DNA of 64,000 nucleotides from an uncultured Candidatus Saccharibacteria bacterium. GTDB lineage: Bacteria; Patescibacteriota; Minisyncoccia; Phycocordibacterales; JAKAEA01. Position numbers and translations under genes: made by a program. The notes below the pieces were generated by a model, which saw only the letters and a program-made list of their open reading frames with translations, made no database searches and was not told where the DNA came from. Every line of letters begins with the position of its first letter. Positions within the stretch are counted from its first letter, which is position 1. The stretch lies in the NCBI GenBank assembly GCA_964577595.1, contig CAZNZK010000004.1, forward strand, positions 27,294-91,293, read 5' to 3'. Of this stretch, positions 2,729-57,677 are shown piece after piece.

Positions 2729-4105
2729 TTAGGTGGAATTGGGCCGCTGTGCCTTGGGTCGTCCCGATTTGGACGGTGGTGCTGGTGCCGGAGGTTGGGC
2801 GGGCGCTGAGGCCTGGGGCGGCTCGGGCGCGTGAGTTGGGGGCGGAACCGGAGTGGGCTGGGGTGGCGGATTTAGGTTTACTAAAGGAGTAGCATTTGCT
2901 CCCGGGAAGAAAACAGTGCTTACTCCTTTGAGCCCTGAACCAAACGCCTCGTTGGCCGCAACTGTTGCCATGGCTGGCGAAGTGTTGAGGGCCGCACCTT
3001 GCTTGGTATAGATTTCGGCTTGCTGGTTACCGACAAGGTCAAGGGCCTGTTTTTTGCCCTCGGCTTCTAGGATGGCGGCCTGCTTGTTACCTTCAGCAAG
3101 AGTAATGAGCGCTTGTTTTTCACCAAGAGCTTGGACTGCTTTGGCTTTACCGGCCCGTTCTTTCTCGGCGATGTCCGCGTCACCCTTAAGTTCGGCTATT
3201 TTCTTGGCTTCCAGCGCTGTTTGTTCCGCGGGCTTGCCGACGCTATAACCCTTGAAGTCAAAGGAGATAACCTCCATACCCGACGTTCTTCTAACGCTAG
3301 TATCCAGCTTCATTGCCTCAAGAATCGCTTCTTCTAGATGAGCAAAGGTGCCCGGAGTACTGATGGTTCCCGGAGTGCCGACTTTGTCGGCGGCAAGAAA
3401 GTCATCAATTTTTTTGCCTCGAAGAGCGTTGATGAGGATGCCCTCTATAGCGGCTCGTACTTTTGCGAACCATTCGCCACGAAGAATGATTACCGGAGTG
3501 TATGGGTCAAATGCTCGTACAGTGAATGCGCCACGAATGGTGACACGAAATGCTCCTTCCAGTTCAATGTCTTTCACTGTGATGGGATAGACAAATTGGG
3601 AGGCTAGATAGTCCGTCCTCGTCGTGCGGTGCATGATTCCTTCAACCTCATCACGCGCATAGCCCTCCTGGTTGGGGGGGTCGCCGGGGCGGATTTCCCG
3701 ATCATAGGAGAAGTCGTAGTCCCAAATCCGATGGGGAGGAAGACCAATCAAATAGACGCCAAACAGTCTTTCACAAAAACTGGGCCGCTGTGATTCGTCT
3801 TCACTGTTAGGGTCTGGTTCTGTTTGCCAAGGATTCCGACAGTCTTCGGGGTGGTGGACAAGTTTCCATCCCCGTAGCCGGTAGATAATCTTGACGATAT
3901 CTCCAGATTTTTCGTAGCCGCCTTTCGTGAGGAATTTGAATTTTCCGTCCTCACGGAAGGTAAACAGAATGTTTTTTTCTGCCAGCAGGCTGAAAGCCTA
4001 ACGAAGCAGAACTAAACATCCGGGGAGCGCGATTGCCACAATGACAACCACGACAGCGATGCACAACAGTGCAAAGAGTAACAGGAATAGTAAAAACGCA
4101 AACAT
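2729..4105 (-). pseudogene. SPFH/band-7 (stomatin/HflC-like) membrane protein interrupted by one in-frame TAG at 4000..3998
   Basis: The minus-strand ATG at 4105 encodes an N-terminal TM helix (MFAFLLFLLLFALLCIAVVVVIVAIALPGCLVLLR). A TAG follows at 4000..3998. The same frame then runs without another stop into an SPFH domain (…KFLTKGGYEKSGDIVKIIYRLRGW…AILEAEGKKQA…) ending at 2729. The total of 1377 nt is divisible by 3. The ORF-track entry 2729..3751 is only the part after an internal TTG. Confidence 0.6.
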
Positions 4106-4373: not shown

Positions 4374-4446
4374 TCCGCCCAGTAGGAGTCGAACCTACGA
4401 CATTCCGCTTAAGAGGCGGCTACTCTACCAGCTGAGTTATGGGCGG
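4374..4446 (-). tRNA. tRNA-Lys (anticodon CTT)
   Basis: 73 nt with acceptor CCGCCCA/TGGGCGG, D-arm ACTC-AGCTGGTA-GAGT, anticodon loop CTCTTAA, T-arm GTAGG-TTCGACT-CCTAC. Confidence 0.75.
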
Positions 4447-5184
4447 GGTCTTCTTGTGTAGATTAGCAGGTCTTTTAGTGTTTCGCAATTTATTCCACCC
4501 CTGTTTGTGTATAGACGTATCTTTTATCGTGTCTTTTAGAGTGCCTTGGATCCAGCCAAATATTCTATGTTTTAAATCTGTACTTTTTGGAATAGTAATT
4601 TTTATGGTGCCATAATACAAAACATTTTTCTTCCAGTTTTTATTAGTCGGTTTGATATAACTTTTGCCGAAATTCTCCAGGGGGATATCGCACAACTCCG
4701 ACCAAAAACGTTTTATTGATTTTTCATTTTGTTGATTGTAAATATTGAGGCGGGCTCGCAGGAAGTGGGGTGAAATGAGAAATACCTCCTCAATCCAATG
4801 AACCATGAATAAAATTAAAGACGGATCGGAGTTGGTCATTTCAAATCCTTTACCTTTTGTTCCCTCTGCCCAATACAGAAAACAACCAAGAAGCCGCACG
4901 GTCTCCTTTGAAAGAGGCACCACTACTTCTTTTGAGGCGGTGTTGATGATTTCGTCGATCTCTTTTCTTCTACGCGCAGTCTGATTTTTTAGTGATGCAT
5001 TTAGTAGGATGATTTGTTTTGTGTATAAGGCCTTTCGTTGGCTTTCAGTAAGTACAATTTCTTTCAGAAAAAAACTTAAGGTACTTTTGGAAAGTCCGGT
5101 TTGTTTTCTGATATCTCCGTAACTCAATCCTTGTTTACGGAGGGTGATTGCTTTCTGTTTAATTTCCTCAGAGACTTTTCGCAC
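4420..5184 (-). CDS. HTH-domain protein with a LAGLIDADG-like (homing-endonuclease-like) core; its 3' end overlaps tRNA-Lys
   Basis: 254 aa. The N-terminal HTH (ITLRKQGLSYGDIRKQTGLSKSTLSFFLK) resembles resolvase/IS30-type HTH. The central LLGCFLYWAEGTKGKGF resembles the LAGLIDADG motif. The last 27 nt overlap the tRNA-Lys 5' region. Confidence 0.45.
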   Translation of the reverse strand: MRKVSEEIKQKAITLRKQGLSYGDIRKQTGLSKSTLSFFLKEIVLTESQRKALYTKQIILLNASLKNQTARRRKEIDEIINTASKEVVVPLSKETVRLLGCFLYWAEGTKGKGFEMTNSDPSLILFMVHWIEEVFLISPHFLRARLNIYNQQNEKSIKRFWSELCDIPLENFGKSYIKPTNKNWKKNVLYYGTIKITIPKSTDLKHRIFGWIQGTLKDTIKDTSIHKQGWNKLRNTKRPANLHKKTPPITQLVE

Positions 5185-17941: not shown

Positions 17942-18102
17942 GACTTTTGGTTCTGGTGATTGTCCGTCGGATTATCATCACAGCCCCGCGGTGGCAGAAA
18001 TGCCGCCGCCGACAAAGTAAACAATGGCTTCGGCCCGACTCCATCGCAAGGTGGAGGCACACAAAGAGGAGACTCAAGGCAATAGGGCTTTGAGTCTTTT
18101 CG
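17942..18102 (+). ncRNA. Candidate ~160-nt structured small RNA (unknown family), bounded by the promoter above and an intrinsic terminator
   Basis: Helices capped by stable tetraloops: GCGGUGGCA-GAAA-UGCCGCCGC, GGC-UUCG-GCC, CCAUC-GCAA-GGUGG. The terminator AGACTCAA…TTGAGTCT+TTTTCG at 18070..18102 overlaps the 3' end of the convergent MazF-like gene. Confidence 0.4.
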
Positions 18103-18478
18103 TAAGTTCTTTAAATTCTTCTTCCTTCATAATACCTATTAGATTAGCCAAACGTTTTGTGTCAATTAATCGGAGTTGAGAAAGGATTACTGCGCCCCTA
18201 ATTAAATCTAGGGATGCAATGGGGAAATAATATTTTTGTAAATGGGTCGCCACCGCTCTATTCGAGGTTGTTACGGGTAGTACCCAGCATATATCTTTAC
18301 TAAACTTTCTAAAAATAATAATAGGGCGAGCAAATTCTTTCGAGTCCCCATCTTGTTCTGAGCCGATATTTATGCCGAGGTAGCAAAACCAAATTTCTCG
18401 TTCATGAAAAAATGGCCGATTCGTTTTCGCCTCAATAATTTTCTTCTTTTCGCTCCACTTTTGAAAATCTTTTTCCAC
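18074..18478 (-). CDS. MazF/PemK-family (CcdB/MazF fold) toxin-like protein with no adjacent antitoxin
   Basis: …REIWFCYLGINIGSEQDGDSKEFARPIIIFRKFS…ICWVLPVTTS…ILSQLRLID… parallels E. coli MazF (GDLIWVDFDPTKGSEQAGHRPAVVLS…CLCVPCTTQ…ADQVKSI). It is paralogous to 56725..57078. Confidence 0.55.
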   Translation of the reverse strand: MEKDFQKWSEKKKIIEAKTNRPFFHEREIWFCYLGINIGSEQDGDSKEFARPIIIFRKFSKDICWVLPVTTSNRAVATHLQKYYFPIASLDLIRGAVILSQLRLIDTKRLANLIGIMKEEEFKELTKRLKALLP

Positions 18479-18897: not shown

Positions 18898-18969
18898 GGG
18901 CCTATAGTTTCAATGGTAAAACGACGGTCTCCAAAACCGCAGTTCCCCGTTCGAGTCGGGGTGGGCCCG
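18898..18969 (+). tRNA. tRNA-Trp (anticodon CCA)
   Basis: GGGCCTA acceptor, D-arm GTTT-CAATGGTA-AAAC, anticodon loop CTCCAAA, T-arm CCCCG-TTCGAGT-CGGGG, 3' TGGGCCC-G. Confidence 0.8.
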
Positions 18970-18984
18970 CAGTGAAGCACCACT
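18964..18984. repeat. Left copy of the 21-bp direct repeat ggcccgcagtgaagcaccact (last 6 nt of tRNA-Trp plus 15 nt downstream)
   Basis: Exact match to 22071..22091. Confidence 0.8.
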
Positions 18985-19184: not shown

Positions 19185-20318
19185 ATGGCTGAAAATAAGG
19201 CTAAAACACCATTTGATTTACCCAAACTTCCACCTTTAATTGATTATAAGGAGCTGGTTGAACATATAAGCTCTGCTCATGCGGCGTTGGCTCGGTTAGA
19301 TGAAATGCTTAAACACGTTAGCAACCCAGCTCTTATAGAAAGGACGTTTCTTACTCGCGAAGCTGTTTTGAGCTCTCAAATTGAGGGTACACAAGCAACT
19401 CTTGAAGAGGTTATGAAAAAAGAAGCGGAAGATGGAAAAAAGATTTCTGAAACGACGGAAAAAGCTCGCGATATTCAAGAAATCATTAATTATCGTGACG
19501 CTTTACGCGAAGGGGTGGAAATTATAAATCAAGGAGAATTTCTCGCGGAAAACAATGTTAAAAAACTCCACAGAATTCTTCTTGAATCGGTGCGTGGAAA
19601 AACCAGAGCGCCAGGTGAATTTAGACGAGAGCAAGTTTATATTGCACCGCCAGGAACTCCCATGTCGGAAGCCGGGTATATTCCTCCAGTACCACAAGAG
19701 GTTCCGGAGCTGTATGGAAATTTTGATAAATATCTCAATACTGCAACATCTGAAAGGGACGTGCTCGTGCAAATCGCAATTTCCCACTATCAATTTGAGG
19801 CAATTCACCCATTTAAAGATGGTAATGGCCGGATGGGGCGTCTGTTGATACCTTTGTTTTTGTATCAAAGGAAAATTATCGCTCGACCACTTATGTATAT
19901 TAGTCAATATTTTGAAGAACACCGACGGGATTATTACGACTTACTTGCGGATGTTAGCTATAAGGATGCTTGGATACCATGGCTACGTTTTTTTCTGAAC
20001 GGTTTAAAAGAACAAGCTCTGGATGCATGCCAATTGGCAGGTAAAATTATCACGCTCCGTGATGAGTATCAAAAACATCTCGCTGAATTTAATTCGACAT
20101 ATGCCTTTAATTTACTGGATGCTATCTTCGCCAGGCCAATTTTTACGGTTGTCAAAATTCAAGAAAGATCGGGAATCAAGGTTTACCAGACTCTATTAAA
20201 TTTGGTTGAAAAGTTTGTTGACGCGGGGATTTTGCAAGATTCCACTCCTGATAAAAAAAGAAATAAAATATATGAGTTCAAGCCCCTCCTAAAACTGTTG
20301 GAGAATAAAAAGGAGTAA
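19185..20318 (+). CDS. Fic family protein (AMPylase/Fido domain)
   Basis: Fic motif HPFKDGNGRMGRLLIPLFL, 377 aa. Confidence 0.85.
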   Translation: MAENKAKTPFDLPKLPPLIDYKELVEHISSAHAALARLDEMLKHVSNPALIERTFLTREAVLSSQIEGTQATLEEVMKKEAEDGKKISETTEKARDIQEIINYRDALREGVEIINQGEFLAENNVKKLHRILLESVRGKTRAPGEFRREQVYIAPPGTPMSEAGYIPPVPQEVPELYGNFDKYLNTATSERDVLVQIAISHYQFEAIHPFKDGNGRMGRLLIPLFLYQRKIIARPLMYISQYFEEHRRDYYDLLADVSYKDAWIPWLRFFLNGLKEQALDACQLAGKIITLRDEYQKHLAEFNSTYAFNLLDAIFARPIFTVVKIQERSGIKVYQTLLNLVEKFVDAGILQDSTPDKKRNKIYEFKPLLKLLENKKE

Positions 20319-20368: not shown

Positions 20369-20397
20369 GTTCTAATACTGTCCCATACGGCCCGCAG
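20369..20397. repeat. Internal att-like repeat gttctaatactgtcccatacggcccgcag
   Basis: Matches 22051..22079 with 2 mismatches over 29 nt and shares the ggcccgcag core with the tRNA-Trp 3' end. Confidence 0.7.
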
Positions 20398-22050: not shown

Positions 22051-22091
22051 GTTCTAATGCCGTCCCATACGGCCCGCAGTGAAGCACCACT
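22051..22091. repeat. Right composite repeat: the att-like arm (22051..22079) fused to a 21-bp copy of the tRNA-Trp 3' flank (22071..22091)
   Basis: gttctaatgccgtcccatacggcccgcag + tgaagcaccact. Confidence 0.8.
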
Positions 22092-42604: not shown

Positions 42605-42870
42605 GGGTACAGAAAATGCTCTAAAAACCTGTCAAATCTGGCAAAAAATTAATTTTCTTCCCGTAGAAGCCCTAACTAAAGTGCTTTTTTACCATGCAAA
42701 ACATATGCGAAAATATGCATATGTTTTTTTGTGATGCAATGTGGTAGGCGGTGGCTTCACTTAGTCATCTCCAAAATCAAAAAGATGAAGAAAAAATGAA
42801 AACTCTCATTTCTTGAGTGCTTTTATGTAGGTGCCCGAAAAGGCGTTTCTAAAAACTCATCAGAGAACGA
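42605..42870 (+). repeat. Copy A of a ~260-bp hairpin-rich intergenic element (also at 51850..52105)
   Basis: About 80% identical to copy B. Shared blocks: aaaac(c/t)tgtcaaat…ttttcttcccgt…, aaacatatgc(g/a)…gcatatgttt (palindrome), gtgatg(c/t)aatgtgg…ggtggcttca(c/t)ttag(t/c)catctccaaaat(c/a)aaaaagatgaagaaaaaatgaaaa. Confidence 0.75.
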
Positions 42871-51849: not shown

Positions 51850-52105
51850 TGGCTACAGAAAAGTGTTAAAAAACTTGTCAAATTTCTTGAAAAACAAATT
51901 TTCTTCCCGTTCGAGCCTTTTAATCAGGGCTTATTTTGCACATAAAACATATGCAGAAAAACGCATATGTTTTTCTGTGATGTAATGTGGCACGGGGTGG
52001 CTTCATTTAGCCATCTCCAAAATAAAAAAGATGAAGAAAAAATGAAAATCCTATCTTTTGAGGGTTTTTCTGTAGGTACCCAAAAAGGTTGTACTGATTC
52101 TGGTG
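51850..52105 (+). repeat. Copy B of the ~260-bp intergenic element
   Basis: See copy A. Located between trmD and the PIG-L deacetylase gene. Confidence 0.75.
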
Positions 52106-55131: not shown

Positions 55132-55149
55132 CTGTCATAGAAAAGCGGT

Positions 55150-55710
55150 ATGAGAAAAATCATCGTCTCAAATATGATTTCGGTGGATGGGTATTTTGCC
55201 GGGCCCAACGAGGAATTGGATTGGCATGTGGTAGATGACGACTTTAATACGTACGCCCTTGAAATGCTCGCTTCCGTAGACACGCTTATTTTTGGCCGAG
55301 TCACCTACGACATGATGGCTAGCTATTGGCAGAGCAAGGCAGGTGTGGAAGACAGTCTAGAGGTAGCGCAGGCCATGAATGCGTTGCGGAAAATTGTCTT
55401 TTCAAGAGACATGCAAAAGGCCAACTGGAATAATACGAAGGTGGTGAACGAGATTGATGCGGCGGCTATCACGGCAATGAAAAACGAGCCAGGCAAAGAC
55501 ATGGTTATTTTGGGTAGTGGCACCATTGTCCAACAGCTCACCGACCTCGGCTTAATAGACGAATACCGACTTATTGTTGCGCCCGTGGCTCTGGGCGTCG
55601 GCAAAGCGCTTTTTGGTGGCATTCAGAAGCGCCTCAAACTCACGCTTACTGGCACGAAAGTTTTAGCGTGCGGTGATGTCATTATGTATTACAAGCCCAT
55701 AACCCAATAA
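55150..55710 (+). CDS. Dihydrofolate-reductase-family protein (RibD C-terminal-domain-like)
   Basis: MRKIIVSNMISVDGYFAGPNEELDWH…LIFGRVTYDMM…MVILGSGTIVQQL…. Confidence 0.7.
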   Translation: MRKIIVSNMISVDGYFAGPNEELDWHVVDDDFNTYALEMLASVDTLIFGRVTYDMMASYWQSKAGVEDSLEVAQAMNALRKIVFSRDMQKANWNNTKVVNEIDAAAITAMKNEPGKDMVILGSGTIVQQLTDLGLIDEYRLIVAPVALGVGKALFGGIQKRLKLTLTGTKVLACGDVIMYYKPITQ

Positions 55711-55715
55711 AAATC

Positions 55716-56222
55716 GTGAAAAATCTTACGACGTGCATTTGGTTTGATACGCAGGCGGAAGAAGCGGCACATTTTTACGTTAACCTTTTTACTGAGGCTG
55801 GCCACAAGGGCACGCTCGGCCAAGTGATGCGTTACGGTAAAGCTTCTGAAGAGGTGTCGGGCAAGCCGGCCGGCTCGGTGATGACGGCAGTTTTTGAGCT
55901 GGATGGTCAGGAATTTATGGCGCTCAATGGTGGCACTCACTTTACACTTTCGGGTGCCATTTCATTTATTATTACCTGCGAAACGCAAAAAGAAATAGAT
56001 TTATTCTGGAATAAGCTTTCCGAAGGTGGTGAGGCAGGCCAGTGCGGCTGGATCAACAAAGATAAATTTGGTGTAACATGGCAAATTACTCCGAGCATTT
56101 TGCCCAAACTCCTTTCTAATAAAAATAAACAAAAGTCCGAAGCAGCCATGAAGGCGATGCTTGGTATGACAAAACTAGATATTGCCACGCTTCAAAAAGC
56201 GTTTGACGAAGCGGGGGAATAA
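55716..56222 (+). CDS. VOC-superfamily protein, PhnB-like
   Basis: …CIWFDTQAEEAAHFYVNLF…TAVFELDGQEFMALNGG… Its last 19 nt (tgacgaagcgggggaataa) recur at 57241..57259. Confidence 0.6.
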   Translation: MKNLTTCIWFDTQAEEAAHFYVNLFTEAGHKGTLGQVMRYGKASEEVSGKPAGSVMTAVFELDGQEFMALNGGTHFTLSGAISFIITCETQKEIDLFWNKLSEGGEAGQCGWINKDKFGVTWQITPSILPKLLSNKNKQKSEAAMKAMLGMTKLDIATLQKAFDEAGE

Positions 56223-56226
56223 AAAC

Positions 56227-56625
56227 TTATTTAAAAACTACTTCAAGTTTAATACGGTCAGGATCTTCAAAATAGATCGCGTAATATGTTGGCCCGTATT
56301 CTGGCATGGGTTTCGGGCTACTATAAAGAGGTACTATTTTTCTCGGCTTCAAAAATTCTTTAGTAAAAGTATCAACGTCTTTCTTAGGTTCTACCCGAAA
56401 AGCAAGATGATTGAGCCCCGTCGCTTTGCGATGAAACGAAAGTGATTGAAATTTTGCATCAGTCTGCATTATCCAAATAACAGTGCCGCCATTACTTGCT
56501 CCTATATGTTCAGAGCTTTCGTCAATGATTTTATATTCTAAATAAGCAAAGAGGTCCTTATAAAAAGGAAGGGAAACGGCGGCCGAAGAGACGTTGATTT
56601 GGATGTGGTAGAGAGAAGCTTTCAT
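56227..56625 (-). CDS. Glyoxalase/bleomycin-resistance (VOC) family protein
   Basis: MKASLYHIQINVSSAAVSLPFYKDLF…HLAFRVEP…. Confidence 0.65.
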   Translation of the reverse strand: MKASLYHIQINVSSAAVSLPFYKDLFAYLEYKIIDESSEHIGASNGGTVIWIMQTDAKFQSLSFHRKATGLNHLAFRVEPKKDVDTFTKEFLKPRKIVPLYSSPKPMPEYGPTYYAIYFEDPDRIKLEVVFK

Positions 56626-56724
56626 TAATTTAGTGTAACATGGCCGTTAGTATTTTACTTATTATGCTATTCTTTATAATAGATTTAAGAAAATTTTGAC
56701 CTATGGAATACGCTTAAAAAGCAG

Positions 56725-57078
56725 TTGCATGCTTCGTTTTTAGATGCAACTAACTTTCCCAAAGAAGGTGAGGTGTGGGTGGCGATACTTGGTAAGAATA
56801 TAGGGTCTGAGATAAACGGTGGTTTGCATAATTTCTCCCGGCCGGTTCTGGTTGTGAAAAAGTTTAGTAATCAAATATATTGGGCGGTTCCGCTTTCCAC
56901 TAAGCAAAAATCCTTGGATTTCTACCTTAATTTTACTGATGTTGATGGCCAGAAAGTGGCACTAATTTTAGCCCAATTACGCTTAATCAACATACGAAGA
57001 TTTCGAAGAAAAGTGTATGATATCGCGCCAGAAATCTTTAGGGATATTCGCCAACGGCTGATAGGCTATCTTACATAA
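56725..57078 (+). CDS. MazF/PemK-family toxin-like protein (paralog of 18074..18478) with no adjacent antitoxin
   Basis: …GEVWVAILGKNIGSEINGGLHNFSRPVLVVKKFS…IYWAVPLSTK…ILAQLRLIN… has the same conserved blocks as the other copy. Confidence 0.55.
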   Translation: MHASFLDATNFPKEGEVWVAILGKNIGSEINGGLHNFSRPVLVVKKFSNQIYWAVPLSTKQKSLDFYLNFTDVDGQKVALILAQLRLINIRRFRRKVYDIAPEIFRDIRQRLIGYLT

Positions 57079-57079
57079 T

Positions 57080-57170
57080 CGAAATCCCCGCAAATGCGGG
57101 GATTTCTCGAACCACTGATTTCTCAGGGTGCTATATATCGAAACCCCCAAAGAGGTTTCTCGAACTATTG
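57080..57170. repeat. Two related GC hairpins in tandem (GAAATCCCCGC-AAAT-GCGGGGATTTC and GAAACCCCC-AAAG-AGGTTTC, each followed by tcgaac…)
   Basis: Read directly. The first is immediately 3' of the MazF-like gene and probably acts as a terminator. Confidence 0.6.
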
Positions 57171-57240
57171 GTTACCCAACAGCACTATGTAAGGAGAATT
57201 ATACGCCAGCATTTTATCCCGTCAACTGATTTTACTCAAC

Positions 57241-57259
57241 TGACGAAGCGGGGGAATAA
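57241..57259. repeat. Second copy of the 19-bp direct repeat tgacgaagcgggggaataa (first copy 56204..56222)
   Basis: Exact 19/19 match. The repeats bracket 1018 bp holding the VOC and MazF-like genes. Confidence 0.8.
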
Positions 57260-57261
57260 CG

Positions 57262-57640
57262 CGGTTTACAAAAAATTTTCCAAAAGAAATCCCCCTTACA
57301 GACCTGCCGATATAGTCTGAGGGGGATTCGAATGTGTGTGGCTTACGACTCCTTTCGTTGTCATAGATCCGCGGCGGAATTGCTCTGCCAATTTGTACGC
57401 ATTTCGGTGGGATTGCCAGTCCACGTCTGAGAGTTACTTTTTGTCCAGCGACCCTTCTCGGGCACGGTACTGAACCGTTTTCACTCAACCGTTTTTCAAC
57501 GCGCACATCTTCCGTTGTGTTCCAGGAAGACTTATGGGGAGCTTTTCCGTCGTTACGGTTTCTTTGAGTCCCATTACTGGGAGCCCAAGTATCCCTAGGG
57601 CTTACGATCTTTTTCCCGAGGGACAGCCGAATACTCTGAA
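57262..57640. ncRNA. Candidate ~380-nt structured RNA (family and strand unresolved; plus-strand motifs resemble bacterial RNase P RNA)
   Basis: No credible ORF on either strand. The plus strand carries GGCACGGTACTGAACCG (cf. E. coli M1 …CCCGUACUGAACCCGG…), AGAAATCCCCC (cf. GGAAAGUCCGG, P4 5' side) and CCCTAGGGCTTACGATC (cf. ACAGAACCCGGCUUAUCGGUC, P4 3' side) at compatible spacing. The minus strand carries a TTGACA-17-TATCAT promoter at 57673..57645. Confidence 0.3.
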
Positions 57641-57644
57641 GAGT

Positions 57645-57673
57645 ATGATAGCATATACTATTACTAATGTCAA
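57645..57673 (-). promoter_or_regulatory. Sigma-70-like promoter (TTGACA-17 nt-TATCAT) on the minus strand, overlapping the topA stop and pointing into the non-coding region
   Basis: -35 at 57673..57668, -10 at 57650..57645. Confidence 0.4.
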
Positions 57674-57677
57674 GGGT

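Follow-up and report, generated by a model that had tools for sequence, protein, structure and literature searches.

How does the end of a protein-coding gene come to stand a second time, letter for letter, about 1 kb downstream and on the far side of two small genes? The question is raised by a locus in a 64,000-nt stretch of contig CAZNZK010000004.1, from an uncultured Candidatus Saccharibacteria bacterium; this whole stretch is referred to here as the window. The 19-bp sequence TGACGAAGCGGGGGAATAA occurs there in two exact copies on the plus strand, at 56204-56222, where it ends a PhnB-like gene, and at 57241-57259, and the DNA between them is poor in GC and carries a glyoxalase-type gene and a MazF/PemK-family gene. 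We tentatively favor the explanation that an attachment-site (att)-like insertion of the Campbell type took place where the PhnB-like gene ends and that this patch is its decayed, immobile remnant; we put this at somewhat short of an even chance.

The 19-bp repeat and the DNA between its copies

The left copy provides the last six codons (DEAGE) and the TAA stop of the PhnB-like gene (55716..56222, plus strand), an intact member of the VOC superfamily (PF06983, Pfam E = 3.6e-37) that aligns with its homologues over the full length. The residues it encodes belong to the C-terminal tail, which varies naturally within the family. The right copy, which is non-coding, lies 15 nt past the -35 box of a predicted small RNA (sRNA) gene and 26 nt ahead of a hairpin, H3, both described below. 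Identity between the copies ends sharply at 19 bases and the flanking DNA is unrelated, with junction sequences GAATAA/AAACTT on the left and CTCAAC/TGACGA on the right. The span between the copies is 1018 nt, and the whole unit with one 19-mer is 1037 bp. An initial annotation had placed an exact 19-mer at both sites, the left one ending the PhnB-like gene, and this is confirmed.

Could such a pair be a chance repeat? Third-order Markov simulations of the window produced an exact repeat of at least 19 nt somewhere in 64 kb in 3.5% of cases, and the window also carries other exact repeats of 17-24 nt, including unexplained ones of 17-19 nt, so its background of repeats is heavier-tailed than the simple model. 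However, none of 200 simulations gave an exact direct repeat of at least 19 nt within 2 kb (p < 0.005), the left copy ends at a stop codon, and the two copies stand at the edges of a distinct block. The combination of proximity, stop-codon coincidence and compositional boundary makes a chance origin very unlikely, the least credible of the explanations weighed here. Nor is the 19-mer common in the DNA searched, a check that the initial annotation had proposed: the 64-kb window contains no third copy, not even one with up to three mismatches, and there is none in 1.6 Mb of related loci or in IMG/VR.

The bracketed DNA encodes a glyoxalase-family gene on the minus strand and a MazF/PemK-like gene on the plus strand, as first annotated and as Pfam agrees. 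The former (56227..56625, PF00903) is an intact glyoxalase/VOC-fold gene of 132 aa, with 38.6% GC (33.8% at third codon positions, GC3) and a stop codon only 4 nt from the left repeat. Its nearest homologues are in other genomes of the Candidate Phyla Radiation (CPR), 66-70% identical over the full length, and sit among assorted small genes in unrelated contexts. The MazF/PemK-family open reading frame (ORF; 56689..57078) matches PF02452 with 29.3 bits against a cut-off of 23.1, and its closest homologues are likewise in unrelated contexts in other CPR genomes. It forms a second compact unit with the sRNA gene that converges on it. The repeats lie 4 nt (left) and 15 nt (right) from the outer ends of these two units, which we count in favor of an insertion.

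Judged by alignment with its homologues, the toxin gene of the window is cut off from its native start. Members of the subfamily share a conserved N-terminus, M-x-x-FD-x-WN-x-LKK, and codons 56689-56724 encode it (ENFDLWNTLKKQ) in frame, with a TAA at 56686-56688 occupying the position of the homologues' ATG. The sole usable start is a TTG at 56725, 12 codons downstream, and initiation there would drop the near-invariant D/W/N/KK motif. The MazF/PemK-like protein of the initial annotation thus retains its family assignment but not an intact gene. Between the divergent VOC and MazF genes is an AT-rich junction of 63 nt (56626..56688, 22% GC), likely the scar of an internal rearrangement. As the toxin gene lacks its start, the patch does not make a coherent or active cassette.

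The composition of the bracketed DNA is also distinctive. It has 39% GC, compared with 49-51% elsewhere and in core genes, and the GC3 of the VOC and PemK genes is 34-39%, compared with 55-60% in core genes and equal to that of two islands beside a tRNA-Trp gene in the same window. The maximum-likelihood low-GC block spans 55958-57291, and its right edge fits the right repeat well. Two composition layers can be distinguished: a RibD_C gene and the 5' part of the PhnB-like gene are host-like (48-52% GC), and the VOC gene, the MazF gene and the DNA as far as about 57291 have 39% GC. Within the PhnB-like gene, GC falls from 52% in the 5' third to 38% in the 3' third, where the Lys-rich tail is AT-rich in any case.

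The patch is part of a larger interval between parB and topA (55132..57677), which, besides the VOC gene and the MazF-sRNA module, holds the RibD_C and PhnB-like genes and a non-coding stretch of 418 nt. The organism is a bacterium of the Patescibacteria (Paceibacteria type), and its closest species representatives share about 65% TopA identity with the window. Each of 44 relatives has parB and topA as convergent neighbors, with a gap of 0 to 5.5 kb (at most 26 bp in 8 of them). A gene of about 500 aa occupies the gap in 22 of the 44, and in both of the two that were checked it carries the relA/spoT domains HD_4, RelA_SpoT and TGS in Pfam. None of the 44 has RibD_C, PhnB or VOC in the gap, and the whole 2.5-kb interval is therefore lineage-specific. 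The arrangement that would speak against an insertion according to the initial annotation, both genes with the same flanks in relatives, was not seen among these 44. In the 64-kb window itself relA/spoT is absent, and no remnant of it was detected, which suggests that the (p)ppGpp enzyme was lost or relocated in this lineage. Past topA are a RhuM-family gene (PF13310; 61696-62184, plus strand) and two unannotated ORFs, which hints that the far side of topA likewise holds accessory or mobile-type genes.

Possible origins of the bracketed patch

Any explanation has to accommodate the repeat and its non-randomness, its position at the edges of low-GC DNA, the genes that the patch carries, the variable nature of the interval, and the conservation of the sRNA unit. 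We hypothesize that a circular DNA became inserted by recombining with the PhnB-like gene at its final 19 bp. A crossover of this kind would leave one 19-bp copy on each side and the PhnB-like gene intact; the low-GC DNA, about 1 kb, would have been acquired horizontally, with the repeats marking its two junctions. The recombinase may have acted in trans or have been lost since. An internal deletion at 56626-56688 could then have taken away the start of the toxin gene, along with any DNA that separated the two units. What remained would be the present content, two unrelated compact units comprising an intact VOC gene and a start-less MazF gene with its sRNA gene.

The same window offers a parallel. 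The last bases of a tRNA-Trp gene (18898-18970) together with 13 nt downstream are repeated exactly further along: the 21 nt of 18964-18984 recur at 22071-22091. Between them, 20372-20397 forms a second site that is similar to the left half of the third, at 22054-22079. The third site is therefore a hybrid, its right part matching the tRNA end and its left part matching 20372-20397, a layout classically associated with tandem integrations. Two islets are delimited in this way; they are 1.4-1.7 kb long with 39-40% GC, one or two genes and repeats of 18-21 nt, and they have no integrase. Islet A carries a SoFic-type Fic defense gene (19185-20318, E = 1e-110), and islet B a 297-aa gene of unknown function and a metallophosphoesterase-like gene. 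An att-type origin of the PhnB-end repeat is more credible because this genome has other small, low-GC, repeat-bracketed patches without a recombinase.

The initial annotation had left open whether the repeat is the footprint of an att-like insertion or of a target-site duplication. The low-GC edges, the tight packing, the variable interval and the tRNA-Trp parallels support the former. A duplication made by a transposase during insertion of a 1-kb non-autonomous transposon would also account for direct repeats that immediately flank a discrete, foreign-looking block. However, the target duplications of bacterial transposons are usually 2-14 bp, and 19 bp is longer than those known. Terminal inverted repeats are missing from the block (849 of 1000 shuffles score equally well), no transposase is among the larger ORFs of the window, and no other copy of the block was present anywhere searched. 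We therefore regard a transposon origin as highly improbable.

Several observations weigh against an att-like insertion. The left edge of the low-GC block falls inside the PhnB-like gene and not at its stop codon. The variable tail of a non-conserved gene would be an odd target for a dedicated site-specific system, and the absence of the 19-mer from IMG/VR and from the related loci gives no sign of a recurrent attachment site. No recombinase lies between the two repeats, and none, nor any transposase, is found among the window ORFs of at least 200 aa, three of which have no Pfam match. A second copy of the patch was not found anywhere searched, VOC and PemK homologues are never neighbors elsewhere, and PemK modules in other genomes have no bracketing repeats. 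An empty site, defined as the PhnB stop joined straight to CGCGGTTTAC (that is, ...GCGTTTGACGAAGCGGGGGAATAA to CGCGGTTTACAAAAAATT), was not found either; the clusters at 90% identity contain no other strain, and the closest non-self PhnB homologue is 63% identical. A circular or excised form would carry the junction from 57240 to 56223 through one 19-mer (...TTTTACTCAAC-19mer-AAACTTATTTAAAAAC). All recorded contigs with these exact proteins have the same arrangement and represent one population, a JGI contig differing at 1 position in 7.3 kb and a Logan contig being identical. Nothing indicates that the patch is mobile at present.

A further complication is that positions 56624-56644, overlapping the VOC start codon, match PhnB positions 56062-56082 at 19 of 21 bases. 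This borderline PhnB-derived match hints at a messier history than a single insertion. It bears on another explanation, in which no mobile element took part: foreign pieces were taken up one after another in a permissive intergenic zone, through illegitimate recombination or through template switching during replication, and the joints received bits copied from the nearby PhnB 3' end. The units are indeed unrelated and form a mosaic, the cut in the toxin gene falls exactly on its start codon, and the second PhnB-derived piece lies at another joint, collinear with the 19-mer. Recombinases (among the larger window ORFs) and inverted repeats are missing, and the whole interval is a zone of turnover. 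Yet the score of the 19/21 match, 32, barely exceeds that of the best shuffle, 31, and a third apparent piece (57196-57240, p ~0.009 in a restricted test) overlaps conserved promoter hexamers of the sRNA gene and is probably due to chance. Template switching alone, moreover, does not predict exact repeats at both outer edges of the low-GC DNA. Such a patchwork is a serious competitor that we nonetheless consider rather unlikely. The resemblance of AGCATTTT had suggested that the PhnB 3' end is present a second time in fragments. This was rejected, as an open search gave no significance (119 of 300 shuffles) and the p value of ~0.009 from the restricted test was down-weighted for the overlap with the promoter hexamers.

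Other classes of element were also considered and rejected. A phage origin finds no support in IMG/VR, where the PemK subfamily, the sRNA motif and the 19-mer are all absent. The junctions lack the GTTRRRY of an integron gene cassette, no integrase is among the larger ORFs of the window, and the predicted sRNA gene accounts for the structured element. For a diversity-generating retroelement, the mismatches are not adenine-specific, the spacings differ (562 compared with 1037), and a reverse transcriptase is missing. Against an XerCD/dif-type element, the 19-mer lacks dyad symmetry. The att-like insertion, since decayed, remains the explanation that we prefer.

A predicted small-RNA gene convergent with the MazF-family gene

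The MazF/PemK-family protein belongs to a subfamily of which about 460 members were found, mostly in CPR genomes and 129-134 aa long. A profile of 100 sequences compared with PDB matched EndoA/MazF/PemK toxins over the whole domain at E = 3e-4, and an AlphaFold2 model built from the 100 sequences (pLDDT 78) gave top Foldseek matches that were all MazF, with CptN only at rank 39. PADLOC and NCBIfam provide no named family for these proteins. No adjacent gene for a protein antitoxin was found at the MazF gene of the window, at its paralogue, or at homologues in two other sets of loci, L167/L168 and L181-183, the latter from a Doudnabacteria genome. The upstream neighbors differ from locus to locus: a divergent VOC gene in the window, and elsewhere a gene for an unknown protein of 404 or 542 aa, or HSP20. 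The paralogue (18074-18478, minus strand) is a second full-length MazF/PemK-like gene of the window; it encodes 134 aa, 33% identical to the repeat-bracketed protein, is divergent from an ogt-like gene, and lacks the conserved downstream sRNA unit.

The 123 nt past the toxin stop codon fold exceptionally stably (z = -7.6 and -8.5) and are built of a unit of about 57 nt that is present twice in tandem, the second time in degenerate form. Two independent homologues, those of L167/L168 and L181-183, whose proteins are 56-60% identical, also have this unit after the stop codon. A search with an nhmmer profile of the motif gave full-length matches only beside these PemK homologues in 1.7 Mb of DNA. 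In all three genomes, a promoter lies just past the unit on the opposite strand and is aimed at the toxin gene, and a GC hairpin reads as a terminator with its U-rich tail over the toxin stop codon.

From these features we predict an sRNA gene in the window at 57066..57225 on the minus strand. Its promoter, TTGACG-16-TATAAT (57225..57198), matches the sigma-70 consensus at 11 of 12 positions, and the predicted transcript runs from about 57191 to about 57066, through the degenerate unit (57192-57135) and then the intact one (57134-57077). The terminator hairpin, H1 (57106-57081), has a tail that overlaps the toxin stop codon. In L167 the promoter is TTGACA-16-TATAAT with TG (4483..4456, 12/12) and the terminator is at 4422..4406, followed by TTTCGATTTT. 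The L181 promoter is TTGACA-17-TATAAT (3486..3458, 12/12) and its terminator, at 3429..3405, is followed by GATTTTTAGG. The unit is single in L167 and L181 and doubled in the window, and TRF finds no array. A small hairpin within it is capped by UUCG in L181 and by GAAA and GUAA in the two units of the window; its sequence differs between the genomes and the pairing is retained, although covariation with three sequences is only suggestive (20 of 500 shuffles). An H1-type terminator hairpin taken alone is the generic architecture of terminators in the window genome.

We read the two GC hairpins as a convergent sRNA gene that belongs to this MazF subfamily, a prediction in which the hairpins noted at first are present, but as parts of one gene and not as separate structures. 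Rfam has no family that matches them. Just past the sRNA promoter of L181 (3522-3620, plus strand) is a 32-codon ORF for a strongly hydrophobic peptide (MSELPFWRKALLIIVLVIAAILAAAFVLTFFL), which has no equivalent in the window.

Potentially, the subfamily is a CPR-wide group of solitary MazF-fold proteins controlled by a conserved convergent sRNA of about 55 nt instead of a protein antitoxin, though we regard this as doubtful and more apt to fail than to hold. The RNA may consist of the capped small hairpin and the terminator hairpin, with its 3' end over the toxin stop codon. No description of a MazF toxin paired with a convergent promoter-hairpin-terminator RNA was found in a literature search. 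The module in the window, with its RNA part duplicated and its toxin start-less, could be a toxin-inactivated remnant that arrived with the repeat-bracketed patch. The pairing is the more novel lead of the two, the patch itself being of modest interest: a promoter-hairpin-terminator unit at solitary MazF genes in three distant CPR genomes is a candidate RNA partner of a MazF toxin.

Beyond the right repeat, as far as topA, is a non-coding stretch of 418 nt (57260-57677) with a strong promoter-like site and a terminator-like hairpin on the minus strand. The promoter-like site (57673..57645) reads TTGACA-17-TATCAT with TG, and the hairpin with its U-run lies at 57328-57270. H3 (57286..57328, minus strand), which is outside the bracket and shares GAAATCCCC/GGGGATT with H1, looks like the terminator of the unit that starts at 57673..57645. 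The initial annotation had the right copy abutting a candidate structured-RNA region. It does abut this non-coding DNA, but the candidate structure finds little support, as the stretch is only marginally more stable than shuffles (z = -2.4) and has no Rfam family; it has no similarity in the loci of relatives either. A decayed gene was rejected as its source (no remnant of relA/spoT, VOC, PhnB or another local gene was detected), as was a large tandem duplication of the PhnB 3' end plus VOC, of which the 418 nt likewise hold no detectable remnant. Also rejected were H3 and the 19-mer as extra copies of the sRNA motif. The kinship of H3 with the motif is weak (7.9 bits in the covariance model, E = 0.4), a generic terminator at 1426-1481 outscores it, and the 19-mer scores nothing. 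Elsewhere in the window, a pair of non-coding sequences of about 240 nt (42605-42843 and 51851-52088) are 78% identical and on the same strand in different intergenic regions. They have stops in all frames, an internal palindrome (AAAACATATGCG...GCATATGTTTT) and no Rfam match, and are candidates for a family of sRNAs or regulatory elements.

The place of the right copy, between the terminator H3 and the sRNA promoter, raises the further possibility that the 19-mer is a functional sequence kept twice, as a protein-binding or RNA-RNA pairing site. A read-through minus-strand RNA containing the right copy would pair perfectly with the last 19 nt of the PhnB mRNA, and the copies are identical while all their flanks are unrelated. 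Furthermore, a 12-mer within the repeat, AAGCGGGGGAAT, corresponds to the loop and 3' arm of the PemK-associated terminator hairpin of L167/L168 (L167 4414-4425), and outside the window this hairpin is its only occurrence in 1.58 Mb of other CPR loci. On the other hand, the 19-mer is found in only one population, where no conservation can be demonstrated, neither predicted transcript includes the right copy, the left copy is under coding constraint in any case, and the 19-mer gains nothing in the covariance model. A retained functional site is improbable on this evidence, and we return to the decayed att-like insertion for the comparisons below.

Comparison with known integrative elements and toxin-antitoxin systems

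Integrative islands that enter the 3' ends of genes and leave a direct repeat of about 18 bp include Salmonella genomic island 1 (SGI1), at trmE/thdF, and e14 and phage 21, at icd. The patch resembles these in its direct repeats of about 18-19 bp, one of which ends an intact target gene, and in the atypical composition inside. It differs in being only 1 kb long and in having no integrase, excisionase or mobilization genes; in addition, it sits at a non-conserved gene, neither an empty site nor a second copy is known, and its content is a mosaic that includes a damaged gene. By analogy, it is probably a decayed member of this class of gene-3'-end integrating islands. The tRNA-Trp islets are similar to it in small size, low GC, repeats of a gene 3' end and lack of an integrase, whereas the PhnB-end patch has a protein-coding accessory target, an unrelated repeat sequence, and one bracket rather than a tandem layout with a hybrid site. 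Gene acquisition in the tiny genomes of CPR/Patescibacteria is little known. The patch and the islets are low-GC units of one or two genes with repeats of about 20 nt from gene 3' ends and no recombinase, which suggests either rapid decay of integrative elements or integration catalyzed in trans.

The MazF-sRNA locus has partial counterparts among toxin-antitoxin systems. In the type I loci txpA/RatA and bsrG/SR4 of Bacillus, a convergent antitoxin RNA overlaps the 3' end of the toxin gene; type I systems are reviewed in general elsewhere (PMC6563280). The predicted arrangement is like these in having a convergent sRNA gene with its own strong promoter and a terminator over the toxin stop codon and 3' untranslated region, but the toxin is a MazF-fold protein of 129-134 aa and not a small hydrophobic peptide. 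With type II MazEF/PemIK it shares the MazF fold, without a protein antitoxin gene at the four loci. Type III ToxIN/CptIN systems pair a ribonuclease (RNase) of MazF-like fold with a structured, sometimes repeated RNA, which is a likeness, although here the RNA gene lies downstream of the toxin gene and on the other strand, and two of the three genomes have just one unit. The locus therefore fails the definitions of type II (no protein antitoxin), type I (not a small peptide) and type III (an RNA downstream on the opposite strand). If the predicted pairing is true, it would represent a hybrid toxin-antitoxin architecture in which a type I-like layout is combined with a ribonuclease toxin like those of types II and III.

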